From assembly GCA_024672275.1 (NCBI GenBank), contig GCA_024672275.1_4536.1: a stretch of 64,000 nucleotides of DNA; one strand, written 5' to 3'. This DNA is from a phage. Positions 60,713 through 63,029 of this stretch are shown here, one piece after another. The translations under genes were made by a program, and so were the position numbers. The stretch's first letter is position 1; every line of letters starts with the position of its first letter. Under the pieces are notes generated by a model. The model searched no databases and was not told the origin of the DNA. It saw nothing but the letters and a program-made list of their open reading frames with translations.

Positions 60713-62017
60713 ATGTCAACTACAATTACTAATTTACCAGAAACATCAAAAGTTAATGGTTCTGATTACCTGGTTTTAGACCAATCTGATAAGACTGTTA
60801 AAAGCACAGTTTCCAACTTTCTTACTGACACTGGGGTGGTTTTAGCCACCCAGTTGAAAGATACAGATGGAGCAGATTTAATACAATCCTCAAATGGTAA
60901 TACTGTTCAGGAAGAGTTGAATAACAATCTTCTTAATAATCGTGAACAGTGGCGTCGTAGTCTTGCTGAGGCAGGGTTAACCCTTGTCAACGGTAGCTTT
61001 GAAGAAGGGGCTACAGTAAACAATAAGACGGATGCTGTTTGGCATATTGCTGGTGGGCAGTGCTATACGTGGGATGGTGCTTTCCCTAAAGCTGTTCCCT
61101 CTGACTCAACCACTACATCAACCGGTGGTGTTGGAACAGGTGCATGGGTTAGTGTTGGTGATGCATCTTTGCGTACTGATTTATCTTCATCTGATGGTGC
61201 TGGGCTTATTGGTGTTAGCTCTGGAGGGACAGTACAAGGCTCCCTCTCCGACATTAAGAACTTAATTAAGCACGCGCAGCCGCTTTCTGACAGACGCATC
61301 GTAGCTATTGCTCACCGTGGATATTCAGAGACGTATTTAGAGCAAACACTGATGGCTTACAGTCAATGTAATGCTGATGTATTAGAAGTCGATATGCAAA
61401 CTACATCAGATGGGTATGCTGTGTGCTTCCATGACAATGACTTGTCCCCTGCTACCGTAGGAGGTTCTGGGGCGGTAAAAGATAACACATACTCCACCGT
61501 TTCCGCATTACGTTTTACAAGAGCCGTCGGTACAAGATACGCAGACATGGCGGGCATACCGACATTGGGGTCAGTCTGCCGGATTGCTATGCGACGCGGT
61601 AAAATGCTTCACGCAGAAATAAAAGGCTACAGAACGTTAGAAGATTGCGCTCTTTACTCGAGCATAGTCAACCAATACGGCTTGAGTCCATACACCACAT
61701 TTTCATGCTTCGACTTCGCTCCGTTGGCATACACCCACAACATAAATCCGCGTATTACCTACGCACTAGAGTTAAACTCTTACGATAGTAGCATGGACGC
61801 TAACATAGCAGAGCTTGCGTCCTGGGGCGGGTCTGTGTTGTCTATAAACAAAAACATATTGAGCACTATAGGCAATAAGAAGCTTCGCGAGTGGGAGGCT
61901 ATGGGGCTTACTTTGGCCGCATGGACGATATACACGGCAGAACAAATGCAGACCGTTGCCAATTACGGCATACGTCTTGTATATCTGGATAAAGATTTTT
62001 ACAACATTATAGGTTAA
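60713..62017 (+). CDS. tail fiber protein with C-terminal glycerophosphodiester phosphodiesterase (GDPD) domain
   Basis: N-terminal fiber-like region; C-terminal IAHRGYSE...EVDMQTTSDGYAVCFHDNDL (HRG, E-x-D, HD motifs). Confidence 0.55.
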   Translation: MSTTITNLPETSKVNGSDYLVLDQSDKTVKSTVSNFLTDTGVVLATQLKDTDGADLIQSSNGNTVQEELNNNLLNNREQWRRSLAEAGLTLVNGSFEEGATVNNKTDAVWHIAGGQCYTWDGAFPKAVPSDSTTTSTGGVGTGAWVSVGDASLRTDLSSSDGAGLIGVSSGGTVQGSLSDIKNLIKHAQPLSDRRIVAIAHRGYSETYLEQTLMAYSQCNADVLEVDMQTTSDGYAVCFHDNDLSPATVGGSGAVKDNTYSTVSALRFTRAVGTRYADMAGIPTLGSVCRIAMRRGKMLHAEIKGYRTLEDCALYSSIVNQYGLSPYTTFSCFDFAPLAYTHNINPRITYALELNSYDSSMDANIAELASWGGSVLSINKNILSTIGNKKLREWEAMGLTLAAWTIYTAEQMQTVANYGIRLVYLDKDFYNIIG

Positions 62018-62022
62018 CTGAT

Positions 62023-62790
62023 ATGAAGCAAATTATTAACTCCCGCAATTTCTCACACTGGGACTTTTTAAACACTGGTTCTGGTACAACGATGGTTGTG
62101 CCGGATGGTAGGTTACGTATGCAAAACCCTGATGACTCAAGCAGAGCAATGGTGATTCGCGATATCATGCTAATGCCTGGGGATACTGTGACCATCTATG
62201 GTATTGGAAGGACAACGTCGTTATCATCAGGCGCATTTATAATGGGGGTGGAGTACCCTGTTGGCAAACGCCTCGCTCAAGCTAACTTTATCCATAACGA
62301 AGACAGCTTACTTCTTAAATGTTCATGGAAATGTCCGGTAGACGCCGAACCGTGCACTGTTAGGCTTGCTTGCGGTCTTCCGAAATCAACAACAGCCATT
62401 GCGTATATGACAGACTTATGGATCGAGATTGACTCTGAAAACTTGAGTAGTCGACGCATCTTAATGGACGGTGTTCTTGAGATAAACGCTGGTGTGGCAT
62501 CTATATCAACGGCATATGACCGTTGTAACGTAGGATCAATTAACGCGTCCAGCGTCAACGTTGACATTAGCCCAGCCGTCTTCACCGCAGGAGACCGTAG
62601 GCCTTTGGCGTTTGTCCAGCCGATTTTTAACACTAAAGAAACGTACTCATCCGGAGTTTTAATTCCTGTCGCTGACTTCACTAAGGCTGGGGTTCTAAAC
62701 ATTAGACTTCAAAACCCAGCTACAGGGAATCTCGTAGGTGTTACTGGAGCCAGTATTTACAAAACAATAGCTTTCACTGTATATATTTGA
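62023..62790 (+). CDS. hypothetical tail-associated protein in GC-richer island
   Basis: 255 aa; GC-rich codons unlike rest of window. Confidence 0.5.
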   Translation: MKQIINSRNFSHWDFLNTGSGTTMVVPDGRLRMQNPDDSSRAMVIRDIMLMPGDTVTIYGIGRTTSLSSGAFIMGVEYPVGKRLAQANFIHNEDSLLLKCSWKCPVDAEPCTVRLACGLPKSTTAIAYMTDLWIEIDSENLSSRRILMDGVLEINAGVASISTAYDRCNVGSINASSVNVDISPAVFTAGDRRPLAFVQPIFNTKETYSSGVLIPVADFTKAGVLNIRLQNPATGNLVGVTGASIYKTIAFTVYI

Positions 62791-63029
62791 TTGCAATACA
62801 CTAAAACCCCGCCGAAGCTGGGTTAGTTCTATCATCAGAACGGAATATCGTCGTCGAAATCCATCGGAGGCTCATTACCTCCTTGTGGGCTTTATTGTTT
62901 GGGTGGCAGTTGCTGTTTATCAACCAAACCAACGCTGCGGTAGGTAGGGGGTTTTTGTTGTACCCCCTAACAAATTATTAGGTAGACTGTTTTAGTCAAT
63001 TACGACTTAACTAACCTGAGAAAGTCCCT

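Follow-up and report, generated by a model that had tools for sequence, protein, structure and literature searches.

Module swapping at tailspike loci is textbook, and the modular tailspikes of the CBA120 (TSP1–4), G7C (gp63.1/gp66) and phi92 type are the closest described counterparts of the gene pair considered here: a 434-residue tailspike that ends in a glycerophosphodiester phosphodiesterase (GDPD) domain and, behind it, an open reading frame (ORF) of 255 codons, termed ORF255 in the present study. Both lie in a window of 64000 nucleotides (the whole stretch of DNA that was analysed; one strand, 5′ to 3′) from a phage contig, GCA_024672275.1_4536.1, of the GenBank assembly GCA_024672275.1. 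As in the CBA120, G7C and phi92 systems, the spike carries a Tail_spike_N adaptor, occupies a variable spike locus, shows a breakpoint just after the adaptor and is replaced by alternative alleles in sister phages; with the G7C-like phages it additionally has the 3′ flank of the locus in common. It differs from these systems in that its distal part is a TIM-barrel of the phosphodiesterase type of ~280 residues, in place of their β-helix glycosidases/lyases of ~500–600 residues or SGNH esterases, in its length (434 residues compared with ~690–800 in most relatives) and in being accompanied by an obligatory partner gene.

GDPD domains in virion proteins have been described for phages of Gram-positive bacteria, an example being the baseplate glycerophosphodiesterase of Lactobacillus delbrueckii phage Ld17, as cited in PMC6116005. 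This protein, the central spike of phage phi812 and gp155 of phage K (PDB codes 9eul, 9euf and 9f5m), together with the teichoicase GlpQ (5t91), share family, fold and motifs with the domain in our window, and in the phage proteins, as here, the domain sits in a tail or receptor-recognition protein. However, identity with these systems is only 20–28%, and the domain in our window is fused to an enterobacterial tailspike adaptor and accompanied by ORF255. As we know of no wall teichoic acid in Enterobacterales, the substrate in such hosts must be another phosphodiester-containing glycan or lipid. A further likeness is to the lambda stf–tfa, Mu S–U, P2 H–G and T-even gp37–gp38 pairs, in which the distal end of a fibre or spike and a small downstream gene also form one mobile block, the downstream gene here being tightly spaced at 5 nt; however, ORF255 has no sequence similarity to Tfa or gp38 and is predicted to fold as a jelly roll resembling a carbohydrate-binding module (CBM) plus a β-sandwich, and the upstream partner is an enzyme domain rather than a fibre tip. 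In the literature that we searched, no study dealt with GDPD tailspikes of phages that infect Gram-negative hosts, and none connected GDPD tailspikes with the K2 or any other antigen of E. coli, GDPD being unmentioned in PMC10408124 and PMC12488582.

A preliminary description of the window, made from its letters, had reported a GC-rich island at 61250–62800 that spans the GDPD-coding part of the fibre gene and the next gene, and had read it as the mark of a recently acquired host-range module. Our data lead us to put at roughly 85% the probability that this island is the compositional footprint of a portable two-gene receptor-recognition cassette that entered a Phapecoctavirus-like myophage by recombination at its variable tailspike locus.

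The exchanged segment of the tailspike locus

Over the 12 kb around the island the DNA is 96–98% identical, across 78–84% of its length, with Phapecoctavirus genomes (~150 kb, Stephanstirmvirinae), namely ZCKP1, EF1-1, Ro121c4YLVW, ukendt, anhysbys and nieznany, and judged by this similarity the window is that of a Phapecoctavirus-like myophage of E. coli. The tailspike gene (60713..62017, + strand) occupies a slot that is syntenic with the ‘tail spike protein’ gene of all six of these relatives. Its product consists of a native anchor (residues 1–76), a Tail_spike_N domain (PF18668, residues 92–150, 73.9 bits against a cut-off of 25) and a GDPD domain (PF03009, residues 201–426, 76.1 bits against a cut-off of 23.6), and ORF255 (62023..62790, + strand) is the gene that follows; both the GDPD-coding part and the downstream ORF are present as first described.

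The relatives are 94–97% identical with the window on both flanks of a segment that has been swapped. The native start of the spike gene matches them at 89–94% identity up to nt 444–461 of the gene; in ZCKP1 the homology runs at 94% identity up to 61165 and resumes at 63141, and in EF1-1 its limits are 61156 on the left and 63340 on the right. Between these breakpoints the relatives encode a single tailspike of ~740 residues, whereas the window holds the 434-residue spike, ORF255, a non-coding stretch and a gene for a small coiled-coil protein, ORF96 (63030..63320, + strand; PHROG 5211, E=2e-35). The spike gene itself is divided into a native part (60713..61165, + strand), common to the Phapecoctavirus relatives, and a foreign 3′ part (61166..62017, + strand) that encodes a linker and the GDPD TIM-barrel with its catalytic-set residues. 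Comparison with the related phages, which the preliminary description had proposed as a check for module swapping, showed that they hold other spike modules here: the locus is a general exchange hot spot, because the six relatives have six different distal modules, joined after ~nt 165 or ~nt 450 of the gene. The GC content at third codon positions (GC3) of these modules is 0.30–0.52, and four of the six are, like the present one, GC3-enriched (0.38–0.52).

The cassette, i.e. the GDPD-ending C-terminus of the spike, a 5-nt gap and ORF255, was found as DNA of 87–92% identity in five other, unrelated backbones, which represent at least five phage types. The carriers are a 72-kb N4/G7C-like podophage (L003), 40-kb T7-like phages (L004 and L005), a 91-kb phage with 55% GC (L006), an 88.6-kb phage with nrdD (L007) and a 38.5-kb sipho-type phage (L008). 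For L006 and L007, only weak relatives of the backbone were found (Aeromonas phage ST4, 78%, and an rV5-like nrdD, 74%). Gene order and spacer are constant in the carriers, and the junction TAA/TGA-CTGAT-ATG is identical in all of the lytic ones. Homology with the window starts at 60940 (60940 and 60941 in L006 and L007), 61070 (L003 and L004) or 61223, and ends at 62774–63306, which leaves 61223–62774 as the core common to all carriers. This core agrees well with the interval first outlined for the island, whereas the swapped segment as such continues beyond it to ~63140–63306.

The two crossover zones can be placed in sequence that donor-type and recipient-type genomes have in common. On the left this is the Tail_spike_N region (~60940–61222), the last ~225 nt of the native spike part (60940–61165) being present in cassette carriers also; the right-hand zone corresponds to the 3′ part of ORF96 (63141–63306) together with the non-coding flank described below; in ORF96, homology with ZCKP1 has resumed at 63141 and homology with the G7C-like carrier L003 extends to 63306. 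Everything between the crossovers has foreign codon usage. These breakpoints, the copies in unrelated backbones and a composition that does not depend on the backbone (see below) are three independent lines that bear out the proposed horizontal acquisition of a host-range module, and on such sequence comparisons we regard a horizontally exchanged host-range cassette as very probable.

Behind ORF255 the cassette is followed by a non-coding 3′ flank (62791..63029) common to G7C-like (Gamaleyavirus) podophages. In blastn searches 62800–63140 was 77–84% identical with phages phi G17, SP5M, PhAPEC5 and PhAPEC7, and the podophage L003 matched at 89% identity through 63306. The flank holds a remnant of the 3′ end of ssb on the minus strand (62835–62891), which translates as SPQGGNEPPMDFDDDIPF followed by a stop, with a stop codon also standing just before it, and for which 279 genomes gave 44-nt matches (~91% identity) to the ssb gene of E. 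coli. This remnant suggests that the flank was at some time part of a plasmid, a prophage or host DNA. A direct origin of the segment from the E. coli chromosome or a plasmid was rejected, as a blastn search with 61166–63140 against 5426 complete genomes returned only ssb-like matches of 44–89 nt.

Prophages of Citrobacter (L009), E. coli (L015–L017) and Proteus (L024) contain more distant copies of the cassette. Assemblies and sequencing runs in which the cassette occurs include ERR14098986, ERZ28615941, ERR4096409, ERZ24991165, SRR21977512, SRR13279680 and the NV830 E. coli TPA assembly, and lysogens are found in Citrobacter, Proteus and Providencia. In a large protein collection, GDPD modules of 89–96% amino acid identity are found on proteins of 405–495 residues with differing N-termini, which consist of Tail_spike_N alone or of Tail_spike_N together with either a P22 head-binding domain or a T7 fibre N-terminus; the ORF255 homologues in this collection are all 255–256 residues long. 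Searches of deposited phage genomes by megablast, blastn and tblastn recovered the N-terminal adaptor and the 3′ flank but not the cassette: megablast matches were confined to at most the first 24% of the query, a single tblastn search with ORF255 gave no match, and tblastn with the GDPD part against 50697 such genomes gave nothing above 28% amino acid identity. The GDPD relatives at 23–28% belong mostly to phages of Lactobacillus, Staphylococcus, Enterococcus and Bacillus, and also include Erwinia phage Snitter and E. coli phage DTL. In the carrier L007, three collinear scraps of the region downstream of the cassette in our window lie directly after that phage's own cassette (L007 8517–8817), corresponding to window positions 63312–63347 (89% identity), 63448–63525 (95%) and 63683–63879 (99%). 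They form a transfer scar, implying that the cassette has passed, flank included, between a Phapecoctavirus-type and an L007-type phage.

Composition of the island

The GC-rich island deviates significantly from the rest of the window, as a sliding-window analysis showed: GC at 61250–62800 is 0.453 compared with a window mean of 0.388 (z=3.1, top 1.2% of 1551-nt sliding windows, S.D. 0.021), and the global maximum, 0.467, belongs to the 1551-nt stretch starting at 61071. Two further maxima come close to it in height: a cluster of ten tRNA genes (33957–35879, GC 0.448) and the region of the major capsid gene (43255–44256, PF03864, GC 0.455). The island is prominent but not unique in magnitude, and it is GC-rich relative to the window only; 45% GC is still below that of a typical enterobacterial host.

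The rise has a twofold cause. Total GC climbs already from ~60850, inside sequence common to the relatives, and one account of the island is that it has nothing foreign about it and reflects the amino acid composition of Gly/Ala/Thr/Ser-rich spike domains. For ~60850–61200 this account holds. The Tail_spike_N-coding stretch 60986–61165, which is conserved in the relatives, has a GC of 0.494 with GC at first and second codon positions (GC1/GC2) of 0.57/0.60 and a GC3 of only 0.317; windows within 61073–61222 have a GC3 of 0.13–0.20 with a GC12 of 0.60–0.65, and the native spike part as a whole (60713–61165) a GC3 of 0.29 with a GC1/GC2 of 0.51/0.47. The rise at ~60850–61200 is the Gly/Ala/Thr-rich composition of a native, conserved Tail_spike_N domain, and this left third of the visible rise drops out as a sign of transfer. 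For 61238–62790 the same account fails. The maximum-likelihood change point of GC3 in the spike gene lies at nt 61238 (2-lnL support 61199–61544), where GC3 goes from 0.27 to 0.49; the codon choice had first been seen to shift from ~61250, nearly the same start, and the triplet strings then quoted as examples are present at 61271 (cacgcgcagccgc) and 62344 (gccgaaccgtgc). We then held the protein sequence fixed and drew synonymous codons from the window's own usage, scoring 69 coding segments in this way. The expected GC3 was 0.29, whereas 0.463 was observed for 61166–62014 and 0.431 for ORF255 (gene mean 0.300, S.D. 0.053), giving z values of 6.9 and 5.4 respectively. These segments rank first and fourth; between them stand the capsid gene (z=5.7) and the spike gene taken as a whole (z=5.6), of which the top-ranked segment is a part. 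These data clearly show a true synonymous-codon shift at ~61238–62790, and we consider protein composition a very improbable explanation of the island as a whole.

Such a shift might also arise without transfer if highly expressed late genes adapt their codons to the host. The capsid gene, whose conditional GC3 excess matches the cassette's in strength and is presumably due to expression-linked codon selection, tells us that selection can raise GC3 in this genome. The shift in the spike is nevertheless intragenic, falling at codon 175 beside the homology breakpoint, and the neighbouring co-transcribed tail genes have a GC3 of 0.30–0.32. In addition, the cassette DNA recurs in the unrelated phages named above with a GC of 0.45–0.49 and a GC3 of 0.41–0.50 in every lytic backbone, the backbones ranging from 0.39 to 0.56 GC, so that what is a GC island in our window is a GC trough in L004, L006 and L008, where the cassette is GC-poorer than its surroundings in backbones of 50–56% GC. 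The constancy of its GC across backbones of 39–56% excludes adaptation to the genome in which it resides and points to rapid circulation, and codon adaptation of late genes is left with hardly any weight as an explanation of the island.

The genes upstream of the spike are the usual tail and baseplate set, including those for a 958-residue tail protein and a 717-residue protein. The latter is encoded directly upstream of the spike (58551–60704, + strand) and has, besides a Calx-β domain, an N-terminal and a TIM-barrel domain (PF23844 and PF23845) that are filed as ‘non-contractile tail sheath protein’ domains, an odd annotation for a contractile-tailed phage. Downstream, at 63498–63806 (+ strand), a free-standing protein of 102 residues copies only the N-terminal adaptor of tailspikes (PHROG 7992, E=1e-61; also PHROG 18484) and is kept as a ‘tail protein’ in all of the relatives; it could serve the branched spike complex as a docking stub or be what is left of a decapitated spike gene.

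The GDPD domain and ORF255

GDPD enzymes are usually monomeric. In the spike, the PF03009 match covers profile positions 1–240 of 244, and the NCBIfam equivalog models stay below their cut-offs (PRK09454, 51 bits compared with 264); by these profile scores the spike domain is a member of the GDPD family and not an orthologue of UgpQ or GlpQ. In an alignment of 14 sequences (56–96% identity) the residues H201, R202, E225, D227, H240, E302 and K304 and the motifs HRG, ExD, HD and EIK are invariant, and HRG, ExD and HD persist in two sequences that are only 28–29% identical (L022 and L023). The invariant residues stand at positions that we take, from the GlpQ and UgpQ structures, to be those of the catalytic His/Arg, the metal ligands, the second His and a later Glu. 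An AlphaFold2 model of the GDPD part, with a predicted local distance difference test score (pLDDT) of 70.6, has alternating β and α elements in a TIM-barrel fold, and Foldseek searches of the PDB returned GDPD structures at the top (3l12, 5t9b and 2pz0; best E=2e-13, template modelling scores 0.62–0.68). The model also matches Bacillus subtilis GlpQ (5t91/5t9b), the phi812 central spike and phage K gp155, with which the PDB sequence search agrees. The Tail_spike_N domain matches 8x8m in sequence, as well as the CBA120 TSP structures 4oj5, 5w6h and 5w6f.

ORF255 matched no Pfam, PHROG or NCBIfam family at E≤1e-3. Its AlphaFold2 model is all-β, with an N-terminal CBM-like (CBM4/16/22-like) jelly roll followed by a second β-sandwich, and resembles CBMs in fold; jelly rolls of this type also occur in the receptor-binding domains of spikes and fibres. 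An exhaustive profile search through 1.84 billion representatives yielded 25 relatives, 23 of which are ~250–280 residues long. The possibility that ORF255 is a domain normally fused to spikes was rejected on these sizes, 23 of the 25 relatives being of stand-alone length and the other two (484 and 566 residues) having matched over short stretches. At three IMG/VR loci, two of them at only 25–29% identity, an ORF255 relative begins 3–11 nt after a GDPD-ending gene, and as the pairing is kept at such low identity it is ancient and presumably functional. Since the tails between which ORF255 is exchanged have nothing else in common, it can depend only on the GDPD module or on the glycan or other substrate. 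On its modelled fold, we tentatively see in ORF255 a carbohydrate-binding partner of the GDPD spike.

A different account accepts the transfer of the cassette and takes ORF255 to be an assembly chaperone only, acting in the folding or trimerization of the GDPD spike, while the GDPD domain would bind or cleave a conserved glycerophosphodiester, such as the phosphatidylglycerol anchor of enterobacterial common antigen or group 2 capsules, or an outer-leaflet phospholipid. ORF255 directly follows the fibre gene and travels together with the fibre C-terminus, which is the classic fibre–chaperone layout of the tfa genes of lambda, Mu and P2 and of T4 gp38. It also speaks for this account that a 100% identical prophage cassette occurs in strains of E. 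coli whose O loci differ (O8 and a glycerol-phosphate locus compared with O171), and that the closest solved relatives of the GDPD domain include enzymes of the lysophospholipase D type. However, the likeness to Tfa and gp38 is one of gene position only, ORF255 having matched neither these nor any other known chaperone family in Pfam, PHROGs or NCBIfam, and its predicted fold is the CBM-type jelly roll. Among close carriers, moreover, ORF255 diverges faster (80–94% identity) than the GDPD module (90–96%), as would be expected of a specificity determinant. A conserved target is likewise at odds with the seroconversion genes that flank the prophage cassettes and with a locus that is a hot spot for serotype-specific modules. 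We consider a chaperone acting with a conserved target to be rather unlikely; as a target, a conserved glycerophospholipid anchor is a live alternative.

Candidate targets and implications

In the prophages, seroconversion genes lie directly after the cassette on the opposite strand. These are gtrA/gtrB/GtrII (gtrABC) in the Citrobacter prophage L009 (10030–12772) and in the IMG/VR contig L021 (4828–7199), and an Acyl_transf_3 (Oac-like) gene in L015 (6769–7806), an E. coli prophage next to yciB–yciC–ompW. The prophage cassette is present in three complete E. coli genomes, two of which (M171-1 and EF7-18-51) carry between galF and gnd a rare glycerol-phosphate locus, with genes for a TagD-like (glycerol-3-phosphate) cytidylyltransferase and a CDP-glycerol glycerophosphotransferase, that we found in only four of 5426 complete E. 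coli genomes, the other two being SC516 and BS90R-A; a naive Fisher test of the association gave p=1.2e-6. In M171-1 this locus (L018 11563–18225) comprises the TagD-like gene, an ISAs1 pseudogene, the CDP-glycerol glycerophosphotransferase gene, two GT2 glycosyltransferase genes, a flippase-like gene and one for a hypothetical membrane protein. The genome also has, between wzzB and hisI, a wzm/wzt mannan cluster of the O8 family, and the PGAP annotation gives the rare locus no O-group name.

Given these observations, we propose the following mechanism. The native N-terminus would anchor the spike in the baseplate complex, and the linker and GDPD domain would become its distal end. There the probable reaction of the metal-dependent GDPD site (H201/R202, E225/D227, H240 and E302) is the hydrolysis of a glycerol-phosphate (alditol-phosphate) diester in one of the host's surface polysaccharides. 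This would be an O antigen or O-antigen-type capsule with teichoic-acid-like linkages, of which either the main chain could be cut or a side group removed. ORF255 would most likely serve the GDPD module as a carbohydrate-binding subunit or adhesin-chaperone, which would fit both its predicted fold and its faster divergence. As to a glycerol-phosphate glycan as the target, we judge the chances to be slightly below even, the lysogen evidence being mixed.

Several observations weigh against this picture. The model of the GDPD domain is only of moderate confidence, its active-site loops having pLDDT values below 50, and the model of ORF255, with a predicted template modelling score of 0.53, is likewise of moderate confidence; sugar binding by ORF255 has no sequence-family support, and hence we call it CBM-like and do not file it as a CBM. 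The third lysogen, PEC148, has a 100% identical prophage cassette together with an O171 sialic-acid-type O locus that lacks glycerol-phosphate genes. At the glycerol-phosphate locus, the four genomes that carry it are 100% identical and are probably one clone; the association may then be a single event, and the Fisher p value is inflated. The locus also carries the ISAs1 pseudogene, so its expression may be doubtful, and the prophage spike is only ~63% identical with that of the window and may differ from it in specificity. Finally, the closest copy of the cassette that we found is 92% identical, from which neither donor nor date follows, and the transfer, which had been called recent, cannot be dated.

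The GC island in itself is an ordinary sign of mosaicism, and what is less usual is its cargo: a distal module of the phosphodiesterase type, carried by phages that infect Gram-negative hosts, and a strictly co-inherited 255-residue partner for which no family assignment was obtained. The constant 45–49% GC of the cassette in backbones of 39–56% GC provides a clean example of a module that stays too briefly in each genome to ameliorate. More speculatively, and in our view less probably than not, the GDPD spike and ORF255 may together constitute an uncharacterized two-component depolymerase of Enterobacterales phages, of the phosphodiesterase class rather than a glycosidase, lyase or esterase. 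It would cut teichoic-acid-like (glycerol- or alditol-phosphate-linked) O or K antigens, would depend for recognition on a CBM-like subunit that acts in trans, is obligatory and evolves fast, and would circulate as a plug-in unit of myo-, podo- and sipho-phages and of prophages of Escherichia, Citrobacter, Proteus and Providencia. If this is true, the pair would offer a compact, portable cassette of 1.6 kb for engineering host range across very different tail architectures and, as a depolymerase for phosphate-linked O or K antigens, would represent a new enzyme class for the serotype-specific stripping of capsule and O antigen.

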